A stretch of DNA of 12,162 bases, taken from the IMG/VR virus record IMGVR_UViG_3300049595_003752, positions 1-12,162 of that record. One strand, 5' to 3'. The DNA is from a virus (lineage: Duplodnaviria; Heunggongvirae; Uroviricota; Caudoviricetes). Numbering within the stretch: the stretch's first letter is position 1; each line of letters begins with the position of its first letter. Shown piece by piece: positions 1 to 12,162 of the stretch. The translations under genes were made by a program, and so were the position numbers. Below the pieces are notes generated by a model. It searched no databases. It was not told where the DNA came from and worked only from the letters and a program-made list of their open reading frames with translations.

Positions 1-5
1 TAGCC

Positions 6-13
6 TATTTATA
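6..13 (+). promoter_or_regulatory. TATTTATA motif upstream of ORF 30..770 (variant of the recurrent ATATTTAT putative late-promoter motif)
   Basis: TATTTATA at 6-13, 16 nt before ATG 30. The same core precedes ORFs starting at 3959(-), 6007(-), 8168(+) and 9599(+). Confidence 0.4.
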
Positions 14-29
14 ATAGAAAGAATATAAT

Positions 30-770
30 ATGGAATGGTTAAAAAAAGGTGCAGTCACATTTTCTCTAGCGGTAGGTAAGTTAGAAAAAGATTTATTTGC
101 ACAAAATGGAAGTGAGGATATTTTAGCCCAAAATGTTGGTATTGTAAATCCTTATATAGCAAATCAATTGATGAACGATTTAAAACAAGGTCGTTTAACA
201 CAACAAGTAAAAGAGTTTAGAAAAAAACATTATCAGATTCTTAAAGAGTCGGCTAAGTACAAATTTAAAGACGGACAGTTAATGTCTGAACAAGAAGTTA
301 GACAATCTAGAGTATCACAAGGTGACCCACACGATTCTTATCAGGTAGAAGTTGTTTTTGATAATAAATCATTAGGTAAAAGTTTATTTGAAGAAGGTGA
401 AGTTAGACCTATGAAAATCCAAAGGGGTGTTGTACCTAGACACAAAATTGAAAACTATACTTCCACTGTACACATTAGGGATATTGACGGTAAAAACAAA
501 TTAATTGATTTTTATATACCAAATAAACCTGGTAACGAATCTATCATTAGGGAAATTGAAATGATAAGAATGAACCCAAAAGTTACCGACTTGGTAAATT
601 TTACAAAAATGACATTTACGACTCAAGATGCTGAGATGTTAGTTTTTGAATATAAAATGTTGGCCTTTGACAAGTGTGTTGAATATAACGGTAACCATAT
701 AGTTAAAATGTTCGCTGAGTGTACATCTGATGGTAGATGGGCGGCCGAATGGACTCAAATAATTGATTAA
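30..770 (+). CDS. Hypothetical phage protein (246 aa)
   Basis: Long ORF in AT-rich sequence with an ATG start preceded by an A-rich leader. No family motif recognised. Confidence 0.85.
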   Translation: MEWLKKGAVTFSLAVGKLEKDLFAQNGSEDILAQNVGIVNPYIANQLMNDLKQGRLTQQVKEFRKKHYQILKESAKYKFKDGQLMSEQEVRQSRVSQGDPHDSYQVEVVFDNKSLGKSLFEEGEVRPMKIQRGVVPRHKIENYTSTVHIRDIDGKNKLIDFYIPNKPGNESIIREIEMIRMNPKVTDLVNFTKMTFTTQDAEMLVFEYKMLAFDKCVEYNGNHIVKMFAECTSDGRWAAEWTQIID

Positions 771-796
771 AAAAAGAAGGTTAATTAACGTTTTTG

Positions 797-1318
797 ATGA
801 ACAAAAATAAGGTTTCTCATAGAATAAATGAGGGAATTAGAAGTCCACAGATTAGAATCATAGGTGAAGGTATTGAATCAAAAGTATGTTCGGTACAAGA
901 AGCAATGAAAATTGCTGAACCATTAGATGTTGATGTGGTTGAAATCAACTCAAAGGTTAGTCCACCTGTCTGTAAATTAATTCGTTATGACAAATTTCTT
1001 TACGAAGAAAAAAGAAAAGCTAAAGAAATTGAAAAGAAAAACCGTGAACAACGTGTCGATATTAAAGAAATAGGTTTAGGACCAAATACTGACACACACG
1101 ACATTGAATTTAAAGTTAAACACGCAGTTAACTTTTTAAAAGAAGGTAATAAGGTAAAACTTGTTATGAAATTTAGTGGACGTGAGATGGTTTATAAAGA
1201 AAGAGGTGAAAAATTAATGTTGGAGTTTGTTCAAAAATTAGAAGATTATGGGGTGGCAGAAAGTCTACCCAAAATGGAAGGTAAAAGAATGTTCGTTACT
1301 TTAAAACAAAAAAAATGA
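797..1318 (+). CDS. infC: Translation initiation factor IF-3 (phage-encoded)
   Basis: Both IF3 domains are recognisable: N-terminal 'HRINEGIR..QIRII...DVVEI...PPVCKLIRYDKFLYE' and C-terminal 'KEIGLGPNTDTHDIEFKVKHAVNFLKEGNKVK..MKFSGREM..KERG...MEGKRM'. Start is ATG 797 or TTG 794; there is an in-frame TAA at 782-784. The usual thrS/rpmI/rplT neighbours are absent. Confidence 0.97.
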   Translation: MNKNKVSHRINEGIRSPQIRIIGEGIESKVCSVQEAMKIAEPLDVDVVEINSKVSPPVCKLIRYDKFLYEEKRKAKEIEKKNREQRVDIKEIGLGPNTDTHDIEFKVKHAVNFLKEGNKVKLVMKFSGREMVYKERGEKLMLEFVQKLEDYGVAESLPKMEGKRMFVTLKQKK

Positions 1319-1749
1319 AAAAATTATTAATTATTTTATTATTGGTATTAACTTATTCAAGTTATTCTCAAGTTGATTCTACAAGCAGATATTTGTTGTG
1401 TTCAAATGTTACAAAAACAATTAAATATACTTTTAACACACCTAGGGTGTATAAACCAATAACTTATATTAATTTAAATCTTAATATAAGTAAGGATAAA
1501 TTTAACCCTGAAGATAGAAAAAAGGCTTTTGCTGTTTTATTTTTAGCTGGTTTAGCTTTTACAACAGCTTCGGCTTTAGAAAATGATGGGGCTTACGGTA
1601 CTTACCAATCTTCACCAAACAAAACTAGTAACTACAATAGTACATATACTACAAAACCTTTTTGGCAACAAACACCAAGACAGATAATGATGTGTTTAGG
1701 TATTGGTTTTACAATAGTCGGTGGTGTAGGAATGGCATCTTCCAAATAA
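1315..1749 (+). CDS. Putative exported/membrane protein (144 aa)
   Basis: N-terminal signal peptide-like MKKLLIILLLVLTYSSYSQ, plus two hydrophobic segments (AFAVLFLAGLAFTTASAL; IMMCLGIGFTIVGGVGMA). ATGA overlap with the infC stop. Confidence 0.8.
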   Translation: MKKLLIILLLVLTYSSYSQVDSTSRYLLCSNVTKTIKYTFNTPRVYKPITYINLNLNISKDKFNPEDRKKAFAVLFLAGLAFTTASALENDGAYGTYQSSPNKTSNYNSTYTTKPFWQQTPRQIMMCLGIGFTIVGGVGMASSK

Positions 1750-1750
1750 C

Positions 1751-1781
1751 AAAAAAGGGACCTATTTGGTCCCTTTGTTTT
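1751..1781. terminator. Bidirectional intrinsic terminator between convergent genes
   Basis: Perfect stem AAAGGGACC (1754-1762) / GGTCCCTTT (1768-1776) with loop TATTT, an A-run on the left and a T-rich run on the right. It lies between the stops at 1749(+) and 1780(-). Confidence 0.85.
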
Positions 1782-2151
1782 AAAATAAACTTTCTAATTC
1801 TTCTGCTGATTTATCTAACTCGTCCTTGATACTTGTGTATTCTTTGTGAAGTTCAATGTAACCAATTAAGATATCTTCTAAGTTATTGAATTTGTTTACC
1901 GTTTCAACATTTTGTATTTTACTTAGATTTTTGGTTAAATCAAATATTTTTTCATCATAAATTTCGTTTAAGGTATCAATATCATCCTTATCAAAAGCTT
2001 CTTTAATTTCTTCAATTAATTCTTGATATTTGTTTTCCATCAATTCTGTTAACGAATCTTTTGGGAAATCTAATTCTAATTGTTCTTCGGTTAGAAAGTT
2101 TTTAACAAACTGTTCCAAATCTGATTCTTTGATTATTAATTTTTTCTTCAT
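1780..2151 (-). CDS. Acidic helical/coiled-coil hypothetical protein (123 aa) with putative virion-targeting N-terminal leader
   Basis: ORF ends at the terminator. Very E/K/L-rich. N-terminus MKKKLIIKESDLEQFVKNFLTEE resembles the leaders of other ORFs in the window. Confidence 0.8.
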   Translation of the reverse strand: MKKKLIIKESDLEQFVKNFLTEEQLELDFPKDSLTELMENKYQELIEEIKEAFDKDDIDTLNEIYDEKIFDLTKNLSKIQNVETVNKFNNLEDILIGYIELHKEYTSIKDELDKSAEELESLF

Positions 2152-2326
2152 TTTTAAATTTTATTTCTTTTGAGTTAAGAGTTTCCTCTATGTTACCTAT
2201 TGAATAGTTGACCCACTCATCTTCATACCTTATTCTAACCATTAATTGTTTTAATTCACTTATTGTGATTGATTCAATTACACCCTCACCATTTGGAGTT
2301 ATAACAGGTATTTCTTTGTGTGTCAT
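2102..2326 (-). CDS. Small hypothetical protein (74 aa)
   Basis: Co-oriented with its neighbours and fills the gap between them. Beta-strand-like pattern VITPNGEGVIESI. Overlaps the downstream ORF by 50 nt. Confidence 0.65.
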   Translation of the reverse strand: MTHKEIPVITPNGEGVIESITISELKQLMVRIRYEDEWVNYSIGNIEETLNSKEIKFKNEEKINNQRIRFGTVC

Positions 2327-2340
2327 CTCATATAACGTTT

Positions 2341-2514
2341 TTATTTTTTGTGATAAGTTTCCATTAGTGACCTCATTTCTTCATTCGTAGATTTTAAAGC
2401 CATTTTTAGATACTTTATTTTTTCTTCATCATTTGAATTATTTATCTCATCTCGTAATGATTTTATTTTACCCATCAGACTTTCTAGTCTTAGATAATAC
2501 GTTTCCTTATCCAT
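2341..2514 (-). CDS. Small helical hypothetical protein (57 aa), not in the supplied ORF track
   Basis: Manual translation gives MDKETYYLRLESLMGKIKSLRDEINNSNDEEKIKYLKMALKSTNEEMRSLMETYHKK*. ATG at 2514 overlaps the end of the 489-aa ORF (alternative ATG at 2475). It fills the 2327-2489 gap on the same strand as its neighbours. Confidence 0.65.
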   Translation of the reverse strand: MDKETYYLRLESLMGKIKSLRDEINNSNDEEKIKYLKMALKSTNEEMRSLMETYHKK

Positions 2515-3959
2515 CTTGATTCAGTTGTAGGTTGTTGAGTAGATACTCTATCATCAACAATTTTCATAATACCTGTAACTCTTTTTTTATAATTACTGTA
2601 AGTTCTAGCAATCCTTTTACCGTTACTTAATTGAATACTTTTCTCAGCAACTCTGGTTACTTTAACTTGTTCACCTGAACCATAACGTCTTGTACCTGTA
2701 TAAATAATAGTATCACCAACTTGTAAATTATAAGTTGATACATTCTCTGTTCTACTAATTTTAGCCTCGTTAAACATTTTAACATAAGAATCAAGAAAAT
2801 CTTGTAATTCTTCTTGACTTAACTTAGGTAGTAAACCCCTAATTTCACTATTAATAGAACCATATCTTTCACTTAATCTTGTCATTACGGCCGATAAAGG
2901 TATTGTGTTGTTGGGTCTTCTTTCGTTAACTGCTGCATTCCAATTAACATAATTTGTATCAATGTCAGGTAATCTACCTGGTCTGAGAATCAATGTAACA
3001 TAAGGTAAACCTTGTTCTTTATAACTCATGATATCATTTGCAACACCATCATCAAGTTTAACTAAAAATTGAGTGGCTTCCTCAATAGAAGAACGGTCCC
3101 AATTTTGTAATTTTAAAAACAAAAATATTTTATTATTTTCTGCATATGTAATTAAAGAGTTTTTCTTTAACTCTTCCATGCTAACCTCATTCTTTTTGTA
3201 TAACTCACCCATGAATTCATTAAAATACTTAGAAGTTACTTCAATTAAATTTTTAGGTATTAAATTCATCATTAAAGCCGCATCAACCCTATTGTCTTCC
3301 ATTGTATACCAATCCCAATCTATTGGATCTGGTTGGTCGTACTTGATATTAACAGCGATTTTATATATATTAGCATTAGGTTTTTTTGGGTTGGTGCCTT
3401 TTTTATCTAAAAAGAATACTAAGATACCTTCTTTAGTATAACGTTTATAATAATCTGGGTTAGTTGTAGAAACACACCAATTAGAATGAGCCCCATACGA
3501 ACAAGATGCGTCATGTGTTAACGGAGAAACCACTAACCATTTATCATCTTCATAAATTTTAACTCTTGATGCATTTTTAGGTTTTTGTTCTTCAAAATAC
3601 TTACACATAACCTCAATATCATCAGGGGTTGGGTAAGAATTGATGTCTTTTGGAGCTTTTTTAATTTTAGTGTTTGATTCGGTGTCTGAAGTGTAGATAG
3701 CGTTCACATTTTTTTCACTCAGACGATTAACGTTCTCATGAAAACACTTGACGATACTAATAATGTATTCAGATGTATAATCTTTTCTTTGAGCACACAT
3801 CCAATCAAGATATTTGTTATTACCTGATGGGTCTCCTGCTGATAATTGACGAACCATATCCTCAGATACAGAACCTTCATATTTTTTAATCATATCCTCC
3901 AGACGACCTTCAGTAATGATTTGTTCTAATATATTATATTTAATGTTTTTCATACTCAT
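2490..3959 (-). CDS. Multidomain phage protein (489 aa): 'YG-x4-WC' domain (possibly PcfJ-related) plus a C-terminal SH3/KOW-like segment
   Basis: Contains DPSGNNKY...KDINSY...WLVVSPLTHDASCSYGAHSNWCVS, shared with ORF 6964..7920. The C-terminal LQVGDTIIYTG...VKVTRVAEKSIQLSNG looks like a small beta-barrel. The PcfJ relationship is recollection/inference. Confidence 0.85.
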   Translation of the reverse strand: MSMKNIKYNILEQIITEGRLEDMIKKYEGSVSEDMVRQLSAGDPSGNNKYLDWMCAQRKDYTSEYIISIVKCFHENVNRLSEKNVNAIYTSDTESNTKIKKAPKDINSYPTPDDIEVMCKYFEEQKPKNASRVKIYEDDKWLVVSPLTHDASCSYGAHSNWCVSTTNPDYYKRYTKEGILVFFLDKKGTNPKKPNANIYKIAVNIKYDQPDPIDWDWYTMEDNRVDAALMMNLIPKNLIEVTSKYFNEFMGELYKKNEVSMEELKKNSLITYAENNKIFLFLKLQNWDRSSIEEATQFLVKLDDGVANDIMSYKEQGLPYVTLILRPGRLPDIDTNYVNWNAAVNERRPNNTIPLSAVMTRLSERYGSINSEIRGLLPKLSQEELQDFLDSYVKMFNEAKISRTENVSTYNLQVGDTIIYTGTRRYGSGEQVKVTRVAEKSIQLSNGKRIARTYSNYKKRVTGIMKIVDDRVSTQQPTTESRWIRKRII

Positions 3960-3983
3960 AATTTTATATAATTATTCTAATAA

Positions 3984-3991
3984 ATAAATAT
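3984..3991 (-). promoter_or_regulatory. ATATTTAT motif (putative phage late promoter)
   Basis: ATAAATAT on the + strand at 3984-3991, i.e. ATATTTAT on the - strand, 24 nt upstream of ATG 3959. Confidence 0.5.
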
Positions 3992-4012
3992 TCGTTTTTT
4001 ACGAATAAGCCA

Positions 4013-4041
4013 TTGACACTACGATAAAAAAGACATAATAT
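4013..4041 (+). promoter_or_regulatory. Sigma70-like promoter driving the non-coding unit
   Basis: TTGACA (4013-4018), a 17-nt spacer, then TAATAT (4036-4041). It points into the structured RNA/tRNA-like region. Confidence 0.55.
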
Positions 4042-4081
4042 TAACTTGTAATCGAAACGGTGAAACCACACAAAAGTTAAG

Positions 4082-4190
4082 ATGGTAAGGTTGATGGAAG
4101 GATTTTAATAATCACTGAAACAATCAAATGACCATAAATATAGAGAAAGGGTTTCCTCAATTACAGGAAAGTGGCCCTACAGACCACTAC
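4082..4190 (+). ncRNA. Candidate structured RNA leader upstream of the tRNA-like elements
   Basis: Nested stems ATGGT/ACCAT (4082-86/4131-35), TTGAT/ATCAA (4091-95/4123-27) and GATT/AATC (4101-04/4110-13), plus hairpin TTTCCT/AGGAAA (4152-57/4165-70). No ORF here. Confidence 0.3.
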
Positions 4191-4193
4191 TAC

Positions 4194-4268
4194 GCGGAGG
4201 TAGTTTAAATATTAGAACACAGTACATTCCTGTACTGGGGTGACAGTGAAAATCTGATTCCCTCCGCT
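4194..4268 (+). tRNA. Non-canonical tRNA-like element 1 (Gly-like; 8-nt anticodon loop CAUUCCUG)
   Basis: Acceptor GCGGAGG/CCTCCGC with discriminator T4268. D arm GTTT-AAATATTA-GAAC. Anticodon stem CAGTA/TACTG around CATTCCTG. T arm GACAG-TGAAAAT-CTG(AT)TC with a 2-nt bulge. No encoded CCA. Confidence 0.75.
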
Positions 4269-4281
4269 CTAAACAAAATAC

Positions 4282-4354
4282 GTGGGGTTAGCATAAGTTA
4301 ATGTGTTTAACATTCCTGTTAAAAGATGTGGTGTCGAACCCTCATCCCACTCCA
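4282..4354 (+). tRNA. Non-canonical tRNA-like element 2 (Gly-like; 8-nt anticodon loop CAUUCCUG; encoded CCA)
   Basis: Acceptor GTGGGGT/ATCCCAC, discriminator T4351 and CCA 4352-4354. D arm GCAT-AAGTTA-ATGT. Anticodon stem TTTAA/TTAAA around CATTCCTG. Imperfect T arm containing GTCGAAC. Confidence 0.75.
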
Positions 4355-4356
4355 AT

Positions 4357-4495
4357 GGTGTTAGACACCCACCAACGTGACTATCAGGCCGATGGTCACC
4401 ATAACAAAAATCCTCTGTCACCGAGTAGTGTTGACCGTTGACTTACGTACAGTCCTTTTTTACGGGTTTTTTACGATTAAAAAAATTCATCGGCC
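4357..4495 (+). ncRNA. Candidate structured RNA downstream of the tRNA-like pair
   Basis: Hairpins GGTGT-TAG-ACACC (4357-69), GTGACTATC-AGGCC-GATGGTCAC (4377-99) and GACT-TACGTAC-AGTC (4440-54). Long-range helix GGCCGATG (4387-94) / CATCGGCC (4488-95). GC content appears higher than in the flanks. Confidence 0.4.
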
Positions 4496-4509
4496 AACAG
4501 CTGTTAGAG

Positions 4510-4556
4510 ACCTGACCTTTAGTTTGATTTATCACTCTCTTGGTCAGGTTTTTTTT
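4510..4556 (+). terminator. Intrinsic terminator ending the non-coding unit
   Basis: Stem ACCTGACC (4510-17) / GGTCAGGT (4542-49) with a long, partly paired loop, followed by a T-run to 4556. Confidence 0.65.
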
Positions 4557-4591
4557 AAAATTCAAAAGGATTTTGGAGAAAATGGGTAAGA

Positions 4592-6007
4592 CTAAAAAAA
4601 TCTAAATGAAGACTCTTCTGCCCAGTATTTACCATTATTTTCTGTTTGAGAAAAATTATAAAGTTCTTGTTCCGATAATTCAGGACCTATATTCCATCTA
4701 CCATTTTGACGTACATTGATTGTACGTTTAATCCATTTTGTAATTTCGATGTAAGAAGTTTTTTTACCAAAATATTCTAAAGTTTCAGGATAATAATCAT
4801 TATCTTCTAAAAAATAGGCAATTTTATTGAATCTTTTATCCCCAACTTCAACAGATGGATTAAACATTATATATCTAACATCTTCCAATCTAACAGGTTT
4901 TCTTGGGTTATCTCTTATTAATTGAAGGTGAAAAGGTTCTGTTACCAAATTTTCAGCCCAACCAAAATCGTCTTCAGACTCAGTTAAGTGATTATAATAA
5001 CCATTGTTACCCATTGGACGCCAATATCTTTCATCAACCAAATTTAAAGCATCATCATATTTTACATAATTGTAATAACCATCACCGTCATCATAATGAC
5101 AACGTGGGTTTGTTGGGTTGTAGTCCTTGGGGTTGTATGATATACCTTTACGGTCACAGTTTTTATACTCTATCATCAAACCACCATTCTCTTCATAGAT
5201 ATCGGTAACAAAAAGTAGATAACGAACATCTTCTGGTTTATGATTCATTGGATTTTGATCCCCACCAAAATTTGAATCCACAATATAAAAAACATCACCA
5301 AGTTTAATTGGTTGTTCTTTAACAATATCGGTTGCCCAACCAAATTCATCTTCAGACTCATTCATCTGTGGATTACAAAAATCTTTTTCAACAAAATCTT
5401 GTTTTCTAAAATAAACTTTAGGGTAATGATCATTAAATTTAACTATATAACAATCAATATTATTGAATACTTTTTCATCAATAATTTCGTAACAATCACT
5501 CCAACCACCTACTTTGGAAGTAAACATACCCTCATCTTGTTGGTGATAATAATTTTCAATATAAAATGGTTTACCATCTACACGGACTTTTAACCCAATT
5601 TCATTTTGGGTAGGTAGCCAATCAAATTCTTCTTCTGATTCTGTTAAACTATCAAAGAAGTTTATATTCTTTTGTAACAAACTCCAATAACCCATTTTTA
5701 CCAACTCACCAATCCAACCAGTATCAACATAATGACCTTCACCATCATGGTTTTCTTCTCCAACGTCTTCATATGCCCAAGTCTTACCGTTATTTAAAGA
5801 TACTTTATATTTTAATGAATAACCTTCTGATTCATATTGTTTAGTACCCCACATTGTTTGGACAGATTTAATACCAGGTTTACCATCCTGAATAATATTG
5901 GTAACCATAATCAAATTATTTGTTTCGGTAATAAAAAAAATGTCACCAACCTCAATTTTTTGGGGTTCAACGCTTTCCAATAATATTTTCCTAATAATAC
6001 TTCTCAC
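4592..6007 (-). CDS. Modular putative virion protein/polyprotein (471 aa) with repeated ESE(D/E)(D/E)F(G/D)W linkers
   Basis: GTG start with N-terminus MRSIIRKILLES. Three internal linkers (LTESEEEFDW, MNESEDEFGW, LTESEDDFGW) divide it into four modules. Modules 1 and 3 resemble each other (I.(V/L)GD.F.I ... VT.I ... LV...YW). Confidence 0.85.
   Translation of the reverse strand: MRSIIRKILLESVEPQKIEVGDIFFITETNNLIMVTNIIQDGKPGIKSVQTMWGTKQYESEGYSLKYKVSLNNGKTWAYEDVGEENHDGEGHYVDTGWIGELVKMGYWSLLQKNINFFDSLTESEEEFDWLPTQNEIGLKVRVDGKPFYIENYYHQQDEGMFTSKVGGWSDCYEIIDEKVFNNIDCYIVKFNDHYPKVYFRKQDFVEKDFCNPQMNESEDEFGWATDIVKEQPIKLGDVFYIVDSNFGGDQNPMNHKPEDVRYLLFVTDIYEENGGLMIEYKNCDRKGISYNPKDYNPTNPRCHYDDGDGYYNYVKYDDALNLVDERYWRPMGNNGYYNHLTESEDDFGWAENLVTEPFHLQLIRDNPRKPVRLEDVRYIMFNPSVEVGDKRFNKIAYFLEDNDYYPETLEYFGKKTSYIEITKWIKRTINVRQNGRWNIGPELSEQELYNFSQTENNGKYWAEESSFRFF
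4958..5647 (-). repeat. Three dispersed ~30-bp coding repeats (4958-4987, 5336-5365, 5618-5647)
   Basis: + strand copies agcccaaccaaaatcgtcttcagactcagt and tgcccaaccaaattcatcttcagactcatt are nearly identical. The third copy (ccaatcaaattcttcttctgattctgttaa) is more diverged. Confidence 0.85.
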
Positions 6008-6012
6008 TTTTA

Positions 6013-6020
6013 ATAAATAT
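6013..6020 (-). promoter_or_regulatory. ATATTTAT motif (putative phage late promoter)
   Basis: ATAAATAT on the + strand, 5 nt upstream of the GTG start at 6007. Confidence 0.55.
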
Positions 6021-6024
6021 TCAT

Positions 6025-6032
6025 TATATTTG
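6025..6032 (+). promoter_or_regulatory. Bacteroidota-type -7 promoter element (TAnnTTTG)
   Basis: TATATTTG at 6025-6032, 4 nt before the GTG start at 6037. No clear -33 TTTG element seen. Confidence 0.4.
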
Positions 6033-6036
6033 TATT

Positions 6037-6531
6037 GTGGATAATATTTTAAACATAACAGGTAGGATTGTTTTTGATCCTGATAACGTAACTCGTAAAC
6101 ACAATCGTCAGGCTGATTGGAAGCGTATTGCGATGGTTGTTTTTGAAGATGATACTGCAGAGTATTATTCTTGGTTTATTAAACGTAGATACGGTATTAC
6201 TTTGAACAAACCTTTACGTGGACCACACATTACATTTGTTAACGACTCTGTTAGGGAAATTAATGGTGGTGATAAAGTGTGGGAAGAAGTTAGAAAAAAG
6301 TGGGATGGCAAAGAAATTGAAGTTACCTTAAACTTGGATGTTCGTACCAATATTGAGTATTGGTGGTTAAGAGCAAGTTCTGAAAGTTTTAACCTTGTTA
6401 GAGAGGAACTTGGTCTTGGTGAACCTTATTTTAGTTATCACATGACCGTTGGGTTCCCAAATGAGAGAAACATCGAACAATCGGAATACATACACAATTT
6501 AATTATGAAATTCGGTGGAGAATATAATTGA
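6037..6531 (+). CDS. 2H phosphoesterase superfamily protein (164 aa)
   Basis: Two HxT motifs about 70 aa apart: PHITFV (His64) and YHMTVG (His135), the hallmark of the 2H fold. Size is typical of stand-alone phage 2H enzymes. Confidence 0.88.
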   Translation: MDNILNITGRIVFDPDNVTRKHNRQADWKRIAMVVFEDDTAEYYSWFIKRRYGITLNKPLRGPHITFVNDSVREINGGDKVWEEVRKKWDGKEIEVTLNLDVRTNIEYWWLRASSESFNLVREELGLGEPYFSYHMTVGFPNERNIEQSEYIHNLIMKFGGEYN

Positions 6532-6567
6532 TTCTCTACCGATTTTTTTTTATTCTTATATAAAAAT

Positions 6568-6921
6568 ATGGGTAAAATGAATGAAAATTATTTACTAAAC
6601 AATTACTTTGTAGTTTCAGGTATGACAATGAATTATCCTGTTGTCGATACTGACTACGTATCTTTATATACTGGTTCAAGTTTTTATAACAAATCCGACC
6701 AAATTATTAGTATTAAAAGAAAAGATGTATCTTTTATTAAGAAAGAATTACCAAAGTTTAGTATGCAAGAAACACCAAAATTATTTATTGGTGATTTGAG
6801 TGAACAAGATATGGAGTATTTCCAAAAAAGGTTATTTGAGGCACTTAAATTACCTAATTGGTTGAGTGCAACATCTTATGGTATATCAGATTTAAATATA
6901 AATTATGATGAATTTCATTAA
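6568..6921 (+). CDS. Hypothetical protein (117 aa)
   Basis: ORF co-oriented within the cluster, with an A-rich leader. No motif recognised. Confidence 0.75.
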   Translation: MGKMNENYLLNNYFVVSGMTMNYPVVDTDYVSLYTGSSFYNKSDQIISIKRKDVSFIKKELPKFSMQETPKLFIGDLSEQDMEYFQKRLFEALKLPNWLSATSYGISDLNINYDEFH

Positions 6922-6963
6922 TCATCTACAGAGTAAAATTTAAAATTAATATAATTGTTTTTT

Positions 6964-7920
6964 ATGGGAAAAAGAGAATTAAAAGAACAAAATAAAAATT
7001 TGGAAATCCATGTTGTGGATTTGATAGACAAATTTAACCCAAGTGGGACTAACAAATACACTAGTTTTCTAACTAAAATATTACAAAATAAATTAGAAGA
7101 AGAAAAAAAACGTGTTAAAAAAGGTCGTCTTAGGACAATCCAAAATGTTGTTCGTGTGTTTGAAAGACCAAAAGGTCATGATGATTTGGAAGATGTCTTG
7201 ATTAGTTATTTAATGGAAGTTTATGGAAGAGAAAACATAGATGCTTTACATTCTTTCCATAAACACAGCCAAGAAAACAGAATTACAGGAAAAGATATTA
7301 ATTCTTATAAATCTTGGGAAGAAATGCAGAAAGATGTTGCTTTAGCAACACTAAAACAAAATCAAAAATTACTTGAAAAAGAAGTTCAAAAAGTTTTTGA
7401 AAACGATGAATGGTTAATTGTACGTCCATTAACAGTTGAGTCTTCATTAACTTACGGTGCTGGGACTAAATGGTGTACAGCATCAAGACATAACAAAGAA
7501 TATTTTTATCGTTATTCAAAAAACGGTGTTTTGTGTTACGCAATAAATAAAAATGACGGTGATAAATATGGTTTATTTTACGATATGCAAAATTCAGAAC
7601 TTAGTATTTGGGATGCTCCTGACAGAAGAATTGACTCTGTTGAATCTTCTATTCCATTTGAAATAATGTCTAATACGTATAAATTCATGAAAAATGAAAA
7701 ACCAAATTATACTTATTTTTCTGATTTAGAAAAAGAAAAATGTGATAAATATTATAGTGAAGTAAAAATGGAAGAACTAATACCTACGGTTGACTATGAA
7801 GAAGGTCAAAATCAATTTGATCTTGAACCATTGACAGAAGAATATGGGTACGCGGAAGAAGTGAGTGATGAAATATGTGACGAAATTGATGAACAAGTTA
7901 GACCTAATCTAGAATGGTAA
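6964..7920 (+). CDS. 'YG-x4-WC' domain protein (possibly PcfJ-related), paralogue of 2490..3959, with acidic C-terminal tail
   Basis: NPSGTNKY...KDINSY...KVFENDEWLIVRPLTVESSLTYGAGTKWCTAS. ATG 6964 is preferred over TTG 6955. TATAAT lies at 6950-6955. Confidence 0.88.
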   Translation: MGKRELKEQNKNLEIHVVDLIDKFNPSGTNKYTSFLTKILQNKLEEEKKRVKKGRLRTIQNVVRVFERPKGHDDLEDVLISYLMEVYGRENIDALHSFHKHSQENRITGKDINSYKSWEEMQKDVALATLKQNQKLLEKEVQKVFENDEWLIVRPLTVESSLTYGAGTKWCTASRHNKEYFYRYSKNGVLCYAINKNDGDKYGLFYDMQNSELSIWDAPDRRIDSVESSIPFEIMSNTYKFMKNEKPNYTYFSDLEKEKCDKYYSEVKMEELIPTVDYEEGQNQFDLEPLTEEYGYAEEVSDEICDEIDEQVRPNLEW

Positions 7921-8114
7921 AAAAAGGGGTATATAGAGACGGTAAAGTACATACTCATGAGCATGTGGTTCATGATGTTGAACGTACTTTAGATTGGTGG
8001 CCAAATGCCAATCAAGAAGTTGAGTTTGAATTACTAAACGGCAAAGCAATAATTAAATCTTTGGGTAGGATGTTAAAATCTGAAGATGCTGATAAATATT
8101 GTAGAGATTTCTAA
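7914..8114 (+). CDS. Small hypothetical protein (66 aa)
   Basis: Start overlaps the upstream stop, suggesting coupling. Ends just before a terminator. Confidence 0.7.
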   Translation: MVKKGVYRDGKVHTHEHVVHDVERTLDWWPNANQEVEFELLNGKAIIKSLGRMLKSEDADKYCRDF

Positions 8115-8119
8115 TTAAG

Positions 8120-8142
8120 ACCCTGAGTAATCAGGGTTTTTT
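8120..8142 (+). terminator. Intrinsic terminator
   Basis: ACCCTGA-GTAA-TCAGGGT (GNRA loop) followed by TTTTT. Confidence 0.88.
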
Positions 8143-8153
8143 ATTTTTATCGG

Positions 8154-8161
8154 ATATTTAT
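8154..8161 (+). promoter_or_regulatory. ATATTTAT motif (putative phage late promoter)
   Basis: GATATTTAT immediately after a terminator and 6 nt before ATG 8168. Confidence 0.55.
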
Positions 8162-8167
8162 TTAAAG

Positions 8168-9523
8168 ATGAATAATATCCGTAAAATTACTCGTAAAACC
8201 TTATTAAATGAAGTCGCAGGTATTTCATTCATAGTGCGTAAATGGGCTGACATTTTAGAAAAAGAAGTGAACCAACAAATGGAGGCTCACAGAAAAACTG
8301 AAATGGAAAAAATCCAAAACCAACCTAAAAAAGAAGAACCAAAGTACTCACAATCTTCATTTGATTTTCTTGAGAAAGAAACTGACGATAAAAAGAATGA
8401 TCCTTTTTATTGGGAAGATGAATCGGGTTATGGTTCGGGTAGTAAGTACAAAAATGACGATGATTATTTTAGTTCTTGGAAAAAGAATAAAAATAAAGAT
8501 TGGAAGGAACGTGAAGGTGGTTATTATAAAAAAAGATTTAAGTCAGATGATGACTACGGTTATACTAAAAGTAGTTATGGTAGAAGTTATGGCAGTTATG
8601 GAAGTTACACACCTAGACCTAGTATACCACCGTTAGAAGAAATTGTGGTTATGGGTGAGAAATACCCTGAAGAATACAAACAATTTTCTGTTGATAAATG
8701 GGTTATGAAAAGTAGTAATCGTATTGAGTATGACCATCGGCATTCTGGATACGATGAAGAAGGAAAATACGTTGTTTACTTCAATATACCAATTGCTTCA
8801 ATGAGTAAAGGGGCTTTCATACATGAGATTAAACACGCTTATGATGATTGGAACAGAATGAGTCATGGTGGTAAACCTATCCGTGATAGTTGGGAAATTA
8901 AAAATATATACACCCCTGATTTTGAAAAGTTAGTATTGGGAGGTAGCTCAAGATATCCACAACTTGGTTCATTAATTCGTAATTTTTATTTAGGTTCTAG
9001 TTTAGAAACTCCAGCTTATCTAGAAAATGAATATGATGGTACTGGTGTTGGTTACCAAGAAATTGGTAGAAAACTAAAAAACTTTAAAATAGATAGTTAT
9101 TTCAACAAACAAGGAGAACTTGCTAAGGGACTTGAGGAAGAATTTGAGGAAATGAAAAAACTCGACATCCCTCTGTTTAAGAAATTTAATAACGTAACCG
9201 ATTTTTTAAATTGGGTTAAAAAGTATTTTAACAAAAGAGGTGAAGACATTTTTAAACGTGTTATTAAAATGAAATATGTACACGGTAAACCTTTAGACCC
9301 TTTTGAACCAAAACCTTATAAACCAGTTTATACCGGAACTTACCAACCCAAGACACAAACTAAAACTAAAAAAGAATTACCGAAAGAAGATGACCCTTGG
9401 GCAGATTTTGAAGAAGGTGAAATGATGGGTGATTGGAAATTCTCAAAAGAAAGAGGATGGTATCACGTTGGTGAGGAGAATGGTGGTAAAAATGATGATT
9501 ATTACGATTATTATAATTACTAA
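8168..9523 (+). CDS. Zincin-like (HExxH) metallopeptidase with low-complexity N- and C-terminal regions (451 aa)
   Basis: FIHEIKHAYD (His219, nt 8822-8836) with a downstream ETPAY as candidate third zinc ligand. D/Y/S/G-rich region before the domain and a D/Y/E-rich tail. N-terminal leader MNNIRKITRKTLLNE. Confidence 0.8.
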   Translation: MNNIRKITRKTLLNEVAGISFIVRKWADILEKEVNQQMEAHRKTEMEKIQNQPKKEEPKYSQSSFDFLEKETDDKKNDPFYWEDESGYGSGSKYKNDDDYFSSWKKNKNKDWKEREGGYYKKRFKSDDDYGYTKSSYGRSYGSYGSYTPRPSIPPLEEIVVMGEKYPEEYKQFSVDKWVMKSSNRIEYDHRHSGYDEEGKYVVYFNIPIASMSKGAFIHEIKHAYDDWNRMSHGGKPIRDSWEIKNIYTPDFEKLVLGGSSRYPQLGSLIRNFYLGSSLETPAYLENEYDGTGVGYQEIGRKLKNFKIDSYFNKQGELAKGLEEEFEEMKKLDIPLFKKFNNVTDFLNWVKKYFNKRGEDIFKRVIKMKYVHGKPLDPFEPKPYKPVYTGTYQPKTQTKTKKELPKEDDPWADFEEGEMMGDWKFSKERGWYHVGEENGGKNDDYYDYYNY

Positions 9524-9542
9524 ATTGGTAATCGATAAAAGT

Positions 9543-9567
9543 AACCCCGATTAATTTGGGGTTTTTT
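9543..9567 (+). terminator. Intrinsic terminator
   Basis: AACCCC-GATTAATTT-GGGGTT followed by TTTT, downstream of the 9523 stop. Confidence 0.8.
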
Positions 9568-9586
9568 GTGCCAACTTTTTATTGAG

Positions 9587-9594
9587 ATATTTAT
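9587..9594 (+). promoter_or_regulatory. ATATTTAT motif (putative phage late promoter) upstream of the kinase cassette
   Basis: GATATTTAT after a terminator and 4 nt before ATG 9599. Confidence 0.55.
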
Positions 9595-9598
9595 TGTT

Positions 9599-11203
9599 AT
9601 GTTAACAAAATTAAAAATATATATAACACTAGCAGTACTAGTAATGTTAGTATTTTTTATAGTAAAAACCTTCGTATTACTAGAAATCACACAATCAACA
9701 CCCATAACTCGTGGGATTGAATATACCTGTTTTTTACTTTTTATACCAATTTTTGTCTTTATAACCAAAGAGTATTCATCAAGTAAAAATAATAGGCTTA
9801 TTAATGAACTAAAAGAGTTTGATAGGTTTGTTGACCGTTCTGTTTTGGTTAGTAGAGCTGACGCTAAAGGTAAAATAACTTACGTAAATAAAAAATTCCA
9901 AGAAGTTTCGGGTTGGTCTTTGGATGAAGTTGTTGGTAAAGACCATAACATAGTTAACTCAGGTACACACCCGAAAGAATTTTGGTCTGAAATGTATAGA
10001 GTAACAGTTAAAGAAAGAGATATATGGAACGCTATTTGTACCAACAGAAATAAGAAAGGTGAATTATATTGGGTTGATTCTTATATTAAAGCAGAGTTTG
10101 ATGAAAATGGTAAACTCAAAGGTTTTATGTCTATTAGATATGATGTTACAGAACTAAAGAAAAAAGAAGTAGAAATACGTAATAGAATGAATGCAATAAA
10201 CAAATCTAATGCGGTTATTGAGTTTGATTTAGAAGGGAACATTGTTTTTGCTAATGACTTGTTTTTAGGTACTATGGGATATTCATCACAAGATGAGGTT
10301 GTCGGAAAACACCACAGAATTTTTATAGATGATGAATATTCAAAAAGTGATGACTATTCTCTTTTTTGGAAAAAATTAAATAATGGTGAGTTATTTTCAG
10401 GTGAAATTGTTAGAGTCAAAAAAGATGGGTCTTTAGTATATCTACAGGCAACTTACAATCCTATTATTGGTACAGATGGTAAAATTTATCGTGTTATGAA
10501 AATTGCGACCGATGTAACTAGTTCTTATGAACAAAAGAAAGAGATTGAAAAGAAAAATACTTATCTAGAACACGCTGCTAAAATATTAAGACATGATATG
10601 CACTCAGGGATTAATACTTATATGCCAAGAGGAGTTAACTCATTAGAAAGAAGATTATCTCAAGAAGATATAACTAACCTTAAAATTGAGGCACCACTTA
10701 AAATGATTAAGGAAGGTCTTAAACACTCACAAAAAGTTTATAAAGGGGTTTATGAGTTTACCAATCTAGTTAAGAAAGATGTGGTATTAAACAAGACCGA
10801 ATGTAATGTAAAAAATATTCTTGCAGATTATTTATCATCAACGGCTTATATAAGTCAGGTGATATTAGACGATAATTTACCAACCCTTGAACTTAATGAA
10901 CCGTTGTTCTGTACCGCAGTTGATAATCTAATTAGGAATGGCTTAAAATATAATGACTCCGAAACAAAGTTTGTTAAGGTCTATGGTGACGATGATTCAG
11001 TTGTCATACAAGATAACGGTAGAGGTATTACCCAAGACGATTTTAATTATTTATCCAAACCTTATACAAGAAAAGAAGGTCAAAAAGAATCTGGGACTGG
11101 GTTAGGGTTAAATATTTGTGTCGCAATCTTGGAAGAACATAAGTTTAAGATTACTTGTGAGAAGAATGAAATTGGTACTAAAATGAAAATAAAAATAAAA
11201 TAA
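9599..11203 (+). CDS. Membrane-anchored PAS-PAS sensor histidine kinase
   Basis: Two N-terminal hydrophobic helices. Two PAS/PAC domains (ITYVN..F..VSG...NR.KKGELYWV; IEFDLEG.I.FAN..FL.TMGY...GKHH...ATYNPI). H-box LRHDMHS (His at 10592). N box DNLIRNGLKYN, G1 QDNGRGI, G2 GTGLGL. Start moved to ATG 9599 because the track's GTG 9566 lies inside the terminator. Confidence 0.95.
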   Translation: MLTKLKIYITLAVLVMLVFFIVKTFVLLEITQSTPITRGIEYTCFLLFIPIFVFITKEYSSSKNNRLINELKEFDRFVDRSVLVSRADAKGKITYVNKKFQEVSGWSLDEVVGKDHNIVNSGTHPKEFWSEMYRVTVKERDIWNAICTNRNKKGELYWVDSYIKAEFDENGKLKGFMSIRYDVTELKKKEVEIRNRMNAINKSNAVIEFDLEGNIVFANDLFLGTMGYSSQDEVVGKHHRIFIDDEYSKSDDYSLFWKKLNNGELFSGEIVRVKKDGSLVYLQATYNPIIGTDGKIYRVMKIATDVTSSYEQKKEIEKKNTYLEHAAKILRHDMHSGINTYMPRGVNSLERRLSQEDITNLKIEAPLKMIKEGLKHSQKVYKGVYEFTNLVKKDVVLNKTECNVKNILADYLSSTAYISQVILDDNLPTLELNEPLFCTAVDNLIRNGLKYNDSETKFVKVYGDDDSVVIQDNGRGITQDDFNYLSKPYTRKEGQKESGTGLGLNICVAILEEHKFKITCEKNEIGTKMKIKIK

Positions 11204-11216
11204 AAAAAGAAAAAAT

Positions 11217-11648
11217 ATGATTGATTCAATTTTATTAGTGGATGATGAGGACTTATTCCACTTGGTTTTTGAGGATAGTTGTTCCTTATTAGACATTACT
11301 TTGTCATTAAAAAGTTTAAATAGTTCTGACGAGGCCGCTAAATTATTTGCCGATTGGCAAAAGAATCCAAACGGTAAACCTGAATGTGTGTTTGTGGATT
11401 TAAATATAATCGGTTCGTCCTTTGACGGTATTGAACTTATCCGTAAGGTTAATTTTGAATATGGTAATAACGTAGTTATTGGTATTATATCTTCGAGTAA
11501 CGAAGCGGAAGAACAGGCGAAAGCCATTCAAGCCGGAGCTCAATTTTGGATAATAAAATCTGATGATATTGAACCTCGTTTAGAAGAATTTAGAAAAGAT
11601 TATGAAGGTTATAAAAATAGAACTGCACCATTTAAGGTGTATAAATAA
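11217..11648 (+). CDS. Single-domain response regulator (CheY-like receiver)
   Basis: ILLVDDED acidic pocket, phosphoacceptor VFVDLNI, ISSS (Ser/Thr switch) and WIIKS (conserved Lys). No output domain. Confidence 0.93.
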   Translation: MIDSILLVDDEDLFHLVFEDSCSLLDITLSLKSLNSSDEAAKLFADWQKNPNGKPECVFVDLNIIGSSFDGIELIRKVNFEYGNNVVIGIISSSNEAEEQAKAIQAGAQFWIIKSDDIEPRLEEFRKDYEGYKNRTAPFKVYK

Positions 11649-12162
11649 TGATTAAACTTAACAAAGAAACTAAAAAAGAATTAATTGAATTATTAAATTC
11701 TAAAAACATTGCTTTAGAGGGTAATATAGTTAAATTATTTGATACTGAGGGTGATGTTGAGTTTGAAAAATATTTAAAAACTTGTTCTGAGAAAGATAAA
11801 GATAATAGAAAAAAACGTTTAGAAATTACTAGACAGGTACAACAACAAAATAGAGACCTTACCAATCTTAATAGTGAAAATGAAAAAATAATGGTAGAAT
11901 TACAAGATACATTAAAAAGTGTCGAAGATTCTAAAATTACTTTTGAGGTTCAAAATCGTGAACTAAACGAATGGAAACAGGATAATTTAAGGTTAACCGA
12001 AGAATTAAAAAATGAAATGGTTAAATCCGAACAAGCCAGAATAGAAGCTGAGAAATCTAAAGAAGTTGCTTTAAATGATTTAGATTTATTACAGAAAAAA
12101 ACTCAAACAGAACTTATCGGTACAATAGTTAGGGTGGCTTTAATTGTAATACTTAGTGTTGG
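11648..12162 (+). CDS. Coiled-coil protein entering a probable transmembrane helix (partial, runs off the window end)
   Basis: TAATG overlap with the receiver stop. The frame is open to the window end: MIKLNKETKKELIELLNSKNIALEGNIVKLFD...RKKRLEITRQVQQQNRDL...LDLLQKKTQTELIGTIVRVALIVILSV. Missing from the ORF track because there is no stop codon in the window. Confidence 0.88.
   Translation, partial: MIKLNKETKKELIELLNSKNIALEGNIVKLFDTEGDVEFEKYLKTCSEKDKDNRKKRLEITRQVQQQNRDLTNLNSENEKIMVELQDTLKSVEDSKITFEVQNRELNEWKQDNLRLTEELKNEMVKSEQARIEAEKSKEVALNDLDLLQKKTQTELIGTIVRVALIVILSV

Follow-up and report, generated by a model that had tools for sequence, protein, structure and literature searches.

Can a bacteriophage employ a histidine kinase and a receiver of its own to decide when the host cell is lysed? 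This question is raised by a cassette of three genes located at the end of a stretch of viral DNA of 12,162 nucleotides (IMG/VR record IMGVR_UViG_3300049595_003752, positions 1 to 12,162; hereafter the window), which encodes a sensor histidine kinase, a stand-alone receiver and a third protein, the putative output, composed of a long coiled coil followed by a transmembrane (TM) hairpin. The timing of lysis sets the burst size and the fitness of a phage, and its known controls are the holin/antiholin clocks and, in T4, superinfection. On the basis of the analysis reported here, we give about an even chance to the reading in which the cassette would be a working, late-expressed phage phosphorelay that senses the redox or energy state of the host and controls the timing of lysis through the triggering of the holin. 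The support for this reading comes from the domains and catalytic residues of the encoded proteins, their conservation, the coupling of their genes, the purifying selection acting on them, the domain swaps found in relatives and the neighbourhood of lysis genes.

A Three-Gene Operon in a Giant T4-Like Phage

The source record is an IMG/VR virus contig of 105,103 bp, estimated to be 33% complete. Among its products are a major capsid protein of the T4 type, Gp23 (203.6 bits), and a T4 portal protein (258 bits). These two genes argue against a bacterial contig and bear out the initial annotation, which had considered the cassette phage-encoded; the source is an uncultured giant T4-like lake phage. 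The trio of genes is also present in relatives, among them complete genomes of 290-322 kb, one of which has terminal repeats. A megablast search of the window against GenBank phages gave no match, and a tblastn search of the kinase gave matches at the level of the PAS domains only.

The cassette consists of three closely packed open reading frames (ORFs) on the same strand, which fill positions 9599-12162. Its features are the following:

9543-9570, plus strand: intrinsic terminator of the upstream gene (hairpin at 9543-9563, 8-bp G+C stem, T-run; from a terminator scan and the sequence), which is the upstream boundary of the cassette
9587-9594, plus strand: ATATTTAT box, 4 nt ahead of the kinase ATG, candidate core of a phage-specific (late-type) promoter
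9599-11203, plus strand: sensor histidine kinase gene (ORF, 534 aa)
9824-10183, plus strand: PAS1, of the Aer/NifL/MmoS type (residues ~76-195; from matches to solved structures)
10184-10543, plus strand: PAS2, of the same clade, weaker (residues ~196-315; Pfam PAS_3 and PAS_9)
10592-10594, plus strand: codon of H332, the predicted phospho-accepting histidine in the H-box LRHDMHSG (aligned to the H-box of HK853)
10907-11197, plus strand: HATPase_c catalytic domain with N, G1 and G2 boxes (from Pfam and the box positions)
11217-11648, plus strand: stand-alone receiver gene (143 aa; Pfam Response_reg)
11648-12162, plus strand: third gene, for the putative output protein, codons 1-171 of 226 (the gene ends at position 12328 of the genome)

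The stop codon of the kinase gene is separated by 13 nt from the start of the receiver gene, whose TAA overlaps the ATG of the third gene by a single A, forming the sequence TAATG. The kinase most plausibly starts at the ATG at 9599, which was chosen over a TTG at 9566 because the latter sits within the tail of the terminator, 5' of the ATATTTAT box. Three antisense ORFs (9520-9768, 11108-11527 and 11632-11865) were rejected, being without support and lying opposite genes under strong purifying selection. A bidirectional terminator hairpin follows the third gene (genome positions 12333-12358; L001:2186-2211), and with terminators on both sides the cassette is therefore a three-gene operon framed by them. 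The initial annotation had described a self-contained unit placed downstream of a terminator and of the ATATTTAT motif, in which a receiver devoid of a DNA-binding domain is fused by TAATG to a gene for a long coiled coil entering a hydrophobic helix. This observation as a whole is confirmed: terminator and motif were both found, the TAATG is seen in the sequence, the 143 aa of the receiver are accounted for by the Response_reg domain and a tail, and the coiled coil does run into a hydrophobic helix, to which the full-length gene adds a second TM helix.

The ATATTTAT box occurs 59 times in the 105-kb contig against ~39 copies expected from base composition on both strands (~19 per strand); for 36 of the copies a called start follows at no more than 60 nt, and for 18 at no more than 9 nt. 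It precedes the genes of the kinase and of two putative endolysins, M15 (15 nt upstream of the start) and GH19, both described below, and a further copy, at 89802, is found just upstream of the region matching the T4 portal. In 19 of 22 distinct relatives the start of the kinase is preceded, at a distance of 4-8 nt, by the box in exact or nearly exact form. The box was checked for its placement, and late-type expression is read from this placement near late and lysis genes, in line with the earlier suggestion that it may be a late promoter. Such a placement implies that many mRNAs, that of the kinase among them, would be near-leaderless.

Two scans of viral contigs produced 158 related viral loci, in 147 of which the trio is complete; ten of the others are clipped by the end of the contig, and the remaining one (L071) has the receiver and the third gene with no kinase within 5.5 kb. 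At this last locus (L071:5570-6675) a divergent GH19 lysin gene lies directly upstream, and the kinase may be located elsewhere or have been lost. The overlap between the receiver and the third gene is kept in all of the scored loci, in the form of ATGA (114) or of the TAATG type (28), so that the synteny check called for by the initial annotation finds the third gene conserved together with the kinase-receiver pair. In these relatives the receiver is 78-99% identical to the window protein, the kinase 40-100% and the third protein 48-97%, and the ratios of non-synonymous to synonymous substitution rates (dN/dS), taken at saturated synonymous sites, are 0.02-0.07, 0.13-0.14 and 0.08-0.18, respectively. 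The trio is under strong purifying selection.

At 90% identity the family of the third protein is represented in metagenomes by more than 7,600 clusters; at 50% identity it forms 264 clusters among 1.84 billion and is narrow in sequence space. Its Atlas clusters are 96-100% viral. Among 185,579 prokaryote species genomes, with one genome per species, the third protein is encoded at eight loci only (L162-L169), as the cassette or as a fused variant, each on a single contig of a metagenome-assembled genome (MAG) and distributed over eight phyla; one of these MAGs, from Ignavibacteria, also holds a Gp23 capsid gene. These loci are probably phage contigs binned with bacteria, and a true bacterial home for the third protein was rejected on the grounds that only such scattered contigs were found, one of them in a MAG with Gp23.

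The Sensor Kinase and the Receiver

At its N-terminus, read by eye from the sequence, the kinase has a TM helix at residues 7-28, a loop of ~14 aa, which agrees with the short extracytoplasmic loop of ~13 aa reported earlier, and a second TM helix at residues ~43-56. Two PAS domains and a HATPase_c domain follow, all above the Pfam cut-offs. The best matches of PAS1 among solved structures are MmoS (3ewk, E 9e-27), Aer (8dik, E 8e-19) and NifL (2gj3, E 9e-12), and those of PAS2 are the first two of them (3ewk, E 1.4e-14; 8dik, E 1e-7). By sequence, PAS1 is a clear relative within the Aer/NifL/MmoS clade. The PAS domains of Aer, NifL and MmoS bind flavin adenine dinucleotide (FAD), and the likeness of PAS1 to these proteins suggests that the phage kinase may sense redox or energy state. 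The resemblance lies in the sequence of PAS1, whereas the output of the phage protein is a HisKA-like kinase core on a two-TM anchor.

The C-terminal 235 aa of the kinase align over the DHp and CA domains of HK853 from Thermotoga (E 6e-9), with LRHDMHSG falling on the H-box. This H-box is also present in a second type of kinase found in relatives and in the bacterial homologue discussed below. With a score of 54-56 bits the HATPase_c domain exceeds its cut-off of 26.4 bits, and residues 442, 472 and 499 mark its N, G1 and G2 boxes. By the H-box of the DHp domain and the boxes of HATPase_c, the protein classifies as a class I (HisKA-type) kinase, for which autophosphorylation and phosphotransfer are predicted.

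The input side of the pathway differs among relatives. In about 20 other loci (e.g., L042:618-2072) and in the nearest relative, L002, whose third protein is 97% identical to that of the window, a second kinase of 440-484 aa is encoded between the PAS kinase and the receiver (at ~4150-5555 in L002). It has a periplasmic segment of ~180-210 aa between two TM helices, the same H-box and no PAS domain, and is absent from the window; in these loci two sensors would feed one receiver. Some other relatives have longer kinases with multiple PAS domains. The input is therefore variable while the receiver and the output are fixed, and the window carries the minimal form.

The receiver passes the Pfam cut-off of Response_reg narrowly (33.9 bits versus 30.2). 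Nevertheless, its residues D9, D10, D61, S92-94, W111 and K114 are invariant in 61 relatives, with a mean column identity of 91%, and D61 (codon 11397-11399), the predicted acceptor, aligns with the acceptor aspartate of the receiver structure 3ilh. No output domain is present, and the receiver domain is followed only by a conserved C-terminal tail of ~27 aa. Well known single-domain receivers acting by contact are CheY, which binds FliM, and DivK, which acts on the kinase DivL. The phage receiver resembles them in lacking an output domain and differs from them in its 27-aa tail and in its predicted target, a coiled-coil protein ending in a TM hairpin. We infer that it acts by binding a partner protein, and both the coupling of the genes and the domain swaps described in the next section point to the third protein as this partner.

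The Third Protein as the Proposed Output of the Pathway

The third gene extends beyond the window, which ends inside it, and in the genome (11648-12328) encodes 226 aa with two C-terminal TM helices. In the AlphaFold2 (AF2) model of the protein (pLDDT 86), a small N-terminal domain (N-domain, residues 1-36) is followed by a single continuous helix (37-185), in which the coiled coil runs into TM1, starting near residue 160; after a four-residue loop comes TM2 (190-225), which is encoded outside the window. Conservation is almost complete in TM2 and the loop but not in the coiled coil, which varies from relative to relative, and the small or polar residues of TM2 (G201, T205, S209, G212 and G216) are spaced like a helix-packing zipper and followed by a short charged tail. 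A feature search in the ESM Atlas returned viral hypothetical clusters only. The prediction of a complex between the receiver and residues 1-165 of the third protein scored 0.15 against a mark of 0.32 and was counted neither way.

The most informative evidence on the function of this protein comes from chimeras, found by a profile search with the third-protein family and by reading the sequences obtained. In a first group (P0169, L160 and L165-L168), the coiled coil and the TM hairpin are retained and the N-domain is replaced by a PAS-PAS pair resembling the PAS domains of the phage kinase itself; in another version (P0136, at locus L161) a GAF domain takes this place. None of the loci with such fusions between sensor and hairpin has a receiver or a separate kinase. 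Since the same hairpin accepts a fused PAS-PAS or GAF input in the absence of kinase and receiver, the TM hairpin would be the output. In a second group (P0240, P0249, P0256 and P0261), instead, the N-domain and the start of the coiled coil are fused to a HisKA/HATPase kinase core. In three of these four cases a receiver of 143 aa is encoded directly upstream with a start/stop overlap, and this receiver is 66-73% identical to that of the phage, tail included; the N-domain of the bacterial-type kinase is 40% identical to the phage N-domain. Because kinases with the N-domain follow receivers that are close relatives of the phage one, the N-domain would be the target of the receiver and travel with it. 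Taken together, the domain swaps are the strongest evidence short of experiment that the receiver may act on the third protein, and they favour the role of pathway output that the initial annotation had proposed for it.

Lysis Genes Around the Cassette and the Proposed Mechanism

Just beyond the window, two genes that escaped the initial annotation face the cassette:

12383-13101 of the genome (L001:2236-2954), minus strand: genes for an 80-aa protein and a 154-aa Peptidase_M15_3 protein, convergent with the cassette and sharing its bidirectional terminator

The 80-aa protein has two hydrophobic helices and a charged tail and is a candidate holin. The 154-aa protein matches Peptidase_M15_3 in Pfam (70 bits) and PHROG 894, annotated as "endolysin" (4e-38), and a GH19 homologue is encoded 9.6 kb beyond it in the same genome. 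By gene order the cassette thus has the placement of a holin or antiholin, with the gene of a small membrane protein beside that of a putative endolysin, and the idea of a link to lysis, advanced in the initial annotation, gains contextual support from these neighbours.

A similar neighbourhood is common among relatives: of 80 distinct related loci, 50 have a lysin gene no more than 3.5 kb from the trio, as do 17 of the 25 whose flanks are complete. The lysins are of three types, namely PG_binding_1 fused to GH19, M15, and a domain here called f12, with a match to PHROG 33083 ("endolysin"); in L167 (8753-9556), f12 is joined to PG_binding_1 in one protein. In 32 loci the lysin gene is directly downstream on the same strand, with a gap of 17 nt in the complete genomes G003 and G004; in other cases it is divergent and upstream (12 loci) or downstream behind genes of small membrane proteins. 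The loci of the fused variants have comparable surroundings. In L161 the GAF fusion is followed by a homologue of the 80-aa protein (87% identity), a 93-aa protein with a TM helix and a coiled coil, which weakly matches Rz-like spanins, a 125-aa lipoprotein, a 77-aa protein, GH19 and a glucosaminidase; in L160 the order is Rz-like protein, PAS fusion, lipoprotein, TM protein and PG_binding plus GH19. The fusion is 32 nt from GH19 in L168, whereas GH19 lies ~0.5 kb downstream of it in L165 and the PG_binding plus f12 lysin ~0.3 kb downstream in L167.

The f12 family deserves a separate mention. Its members are of 210 aa, are often encoded divergently beside the kinase gene (L041:467-1099, minus strand) and match PHROG 3000 and, more weakly, an endolysin PHROG. 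Their H...SxGC motif recalls L,D-peptidases of the YkuD type, and f12 is a candidate endolysin catalytic domain for which Pfam has no model.

In the mechanism that we propose, the kinase, anchored to the membrane, would read a cytoplasmic cue, probably the redox or energy state of the infected cell, by means of its two PAS domains of the Aer/NifL/MmoS type; it would then autophosphorylate on H332, and the phosphate would pass to D61 of the receiver. The phosphorylated receiver would dock on the N-domain of the third protein, whose long coiled coil would carry the signal to the nearly invariant TM hairpin at the C-terminus. The hairpin, in turn, might either promote or hold back the formation of holes by a holin, its presumed target. 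The neighbouring 80-aa protein with two TM helices would be the candidate holin, and the third protein a signal-gated antiholin or holin regulator. We consider the odds of such an antiholin-like role of the third protein to be evenly balanced.

Several points weigh against this picture. At the level of the kinase, the binding of FAD by its PAS domains is presumed from similarity alone, and the Pfam HisKA model does not match the protein, so that its H-box is a divergent one. Neither membrane protein resembles a known lysis component: the 80-aa protein and the third protein both lack matches in Pfam and PHROGs, including the families of holins, antiholins and spanins, and fold searches with the model of the third protein in the PDB, the AlphaFold DB clusters and the viral BFVD retrieved a member of its own family only. 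As for the neighbourhood, about one third of the relatives have no recognizable lysin within 3.5 kb, and the complete 321-kb relative G001 encodes neither GH19 nor M15_3 and has a weak homologue of the 80-aa protein 4.3 kb away. The counts of lysins are not independent events, because the neighbourhoods come from related genomes, and in the phage of the window the lysis genes are not co-transcribed with the trio, being on the opposite strand.

The same neighbourhoods bear on a different role for the third protein, namely that it forms the hole itself, as a holin with an unusually large cytoplasmic coiled-coil arm, gated by the receiver in its phosphorylated state or, in other phages, by a PAS or GAF domain within the same protein. 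The 32 relatives in which the GH19 endolysin directly follows the third gene display the classic holin-endolysin order, no homologue of the 80-aa protein was detected in G003, and a nearly invariant TM2 with zipper-like small or polar residues and a short charged tail would suit a hole-forming protein. However, the third protein is accompanied in L161, as in the genome of the window, by a separate small holin-like protein with two TM helices, it has no match among holin families and, to our knowledge, a cytoplasmic coiled coil of 160 aa is not a feature of known holins, so that we regard a hole-forming third protein as unlikely.

A Bacteroidota-Type Relative and the Remaining Alternatives

The kinases with an N-domain belong to an operon of Bacteroidota type in which a kinase, a receiver of 143 aa and a kinase of the architecture N-domain, coiled coil, HisKA and HATPase follow each other with start/stop overlaps:

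L170:179-2523 and L172:3088-6463, and also L171, L173 and L174: loci of the Bacteroidota-type operon

The first kinase of this operon, on contig L172, is 53.5% identical to the phage kinase over 469 aa and has the same H-box. The contigs have 40% G+C, compared with ~30% in the phages, and encode a protein sorted by the type IX secretion system (T9SS), an AraC-type regulator and a xylose-isomerase-like protein; on these grounds they are most likely Bacteroidota chromosomes. The two systems share homologous kinases, receivers and N-domains, the H-box and the start/stop overlap, and differ in the third gene, which ends in a kinase core in the bacterial operon and in a coiled coil with a TM hairpin in the phage. 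In the bacterial relative the receiver precedes a kinase whose N-domain it presumably binds, resembling the logic of DivK and DivL. The front end of the phage pathway (kinase, receiver and N-domain) was probably borrowed from a kinase-receiver-kinase module of Bacteroidota type or shares a common ancestor with it. The initial annotation had expected the trio to be absent as a unit from bacterial chromosomes, and this stands in part: the TM-hairpin output is phage-only, but the kinase, the receiver and the N-domain do have relatives of Bacteroidota type, 53%, 66-73% and 40% identical, respectively.

Such an origin invites the explanation that the cassette is a captured host signalling module that manipulates the kinase network of the host or eavesdrops on it, the lysis neighbourhood being an inherited gene order without functional meaning; the phage kinase or receiver might, for instance, engage in cross-talk with a host N-domain kinase, or the third protein might serve as a membrane sink for the receiver. 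The identities of kinase (53.5%), receiver and N-domain to the genes of the bacterial operon, the T9SS-sorted protein, the AraC-type regulator and the 40% G+C of its contigs, the variable flanks of the trio and the third of relatives devoid of a nearby lysin are all in favour of this explanation. On the other hand, no part of the third protein is better conserved than the TM hairpin, which is phage-only and stays beside lysins even where a fused sensor takes the place of kinase, receiver and N-domain and the neighbourhoods are otherwise different. Furthermore, a search of 401 sampled Bacteroidota genomes (E 1e-25) did not turn up the host-type receiver, and a general host target is thus not evident, although this search was made without a positive control and shows little. 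On balance, a captured host module of this kind seems improbable.

Finally, it is very unlikely that the TM hairpin governs, instead of holin triggering, another late membrane event (superinfection exclusion, a block of DNA entry, a change of membrane potential or the shutdown of a host envelope machine), given that, although the output is a membrane hairpin without an enzyme domain, the sensor type would fit energy sensing relevant to any process linked to the proton motive force, and some relatives adjoin genes for DnaK, a class II aminoacyl-tRNA synthetase-like protein or a metallophosphoesterase rather than lysins, the only neighbours recurring over three architectures are of the lysis type (endolysins, holin-like and Rz-like proteins and a lipoprotein).

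Comparison With Known Systems

The closest system in its way of working to the proposed phage regulator of holin triggering is LytSR with LrgAB/CidAB of staphylococci and Bacillus, in which a two-component system responding to membrane or energy state is tied to holin-like and antiholin-like proteins. In both cases a kinase-receiver pair would be linked to membrane proteins governing lysis and the access of murein hydrolases. LytR, however, is a LytTR DNA-binding regulator of transcription, whereas the phage-encoded receiver lacks an output domain, and its gene is coupled in translation to that of a membrane protein. No family of the LrgA/CidA type was detected in the third protein with Pfam. 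Since the receiver lacks LytTR and the third protein matches no Pfam family, the cassette is not a member of the LytSR group.

Phage antiholins and the proteins of lysis inhibition (RI and RIII acting on the holin T in T4, S107 in lambda and LydB in P1) offer a second term of comparison, with a second phage protein, located in the membrane or in the cytoplasm, setting the firing of the holin and a lysis clock sensitive to the energised state of the cell. Unlike the cassette, none of them is known to rely on a histidine kinase, a receiver or an input of the PAS/GAF type, and they share no family with the third protein in Pfam or PHROGs; the two groups are set apart by these family searches rather than by a direct comparison with RI, RIII and T. 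Full-text searches of the literature did not bring up any paper in which a kinase and receiver of a phage are described as linked to lysis. In the parts reached by keyword search, a survey of jumbo-phage genomics mentions only a different, kinase-independent family of receivers, and a preprint on the envelope proteins of large-genome phages contains no mention of kinases or response regulators.

The fused variants suggest a broader view, which we hold tentatively and rate a little below even. The cassette would represent a modular class of signal-gated lysis regulators, in which a hairpin acting on hole formation receives its signal along a coiled coil from an interchangeable cytoplasmic input. 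This input would be either an N-domain on which the receiver docks, with one phage kinase or two as the source of phosphate, or a PAS-PAS or GAF sensor fused directly, and the time of burst would be set, via phosphorylation, by the redox or energy state of the host. Because the phage receiver and N-domain closely copy the Bacteroidota module, members of this class might also listen to host kinases.

If the proposed control of lysis is true, a virus would have a new means of deciding when its host is killed, namely a phage His-Asp phosphorelay that acts post-translationally on a membrane regulator of lysis, with the lysis decision tied to the redox or energy state of the latter. The family is very abundant in lake metagenomes and could therefore shape the mortality of freshwater bacteria. 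Its swappable input domains constitute a natural set of constructs for testing, and the design of sensor, coiled coil and TM hairpin may serve as a programmable lysis switch.

Other Genes in the Window

Upstream of the cassette, the window contains further genes of note. The gene at 794-1318 (plus strand) encodes a phage translation initiation factor IF-3, with matches to IF3_N (70.9 bits) and IF3_C (103.6 bits) in Pfam and to PHROG 9787. Two paralogues, at 2490-3959 (minus strand) and 6955-7920 (plus strand), match PHROGs 17056 and 28193 and carry the motifs SGNNKYLDW/GTNKY and YGAxxxWC. The gene at 6037-6531 (plus strand) encodes a 164-aa protein of PHROG 12204 with two H-x-T motifs (HITF and HMTV), as in 2H phosphoesterases, and this protein may be an RNA-repair or cyclic-phosphodiesterase enzyme.

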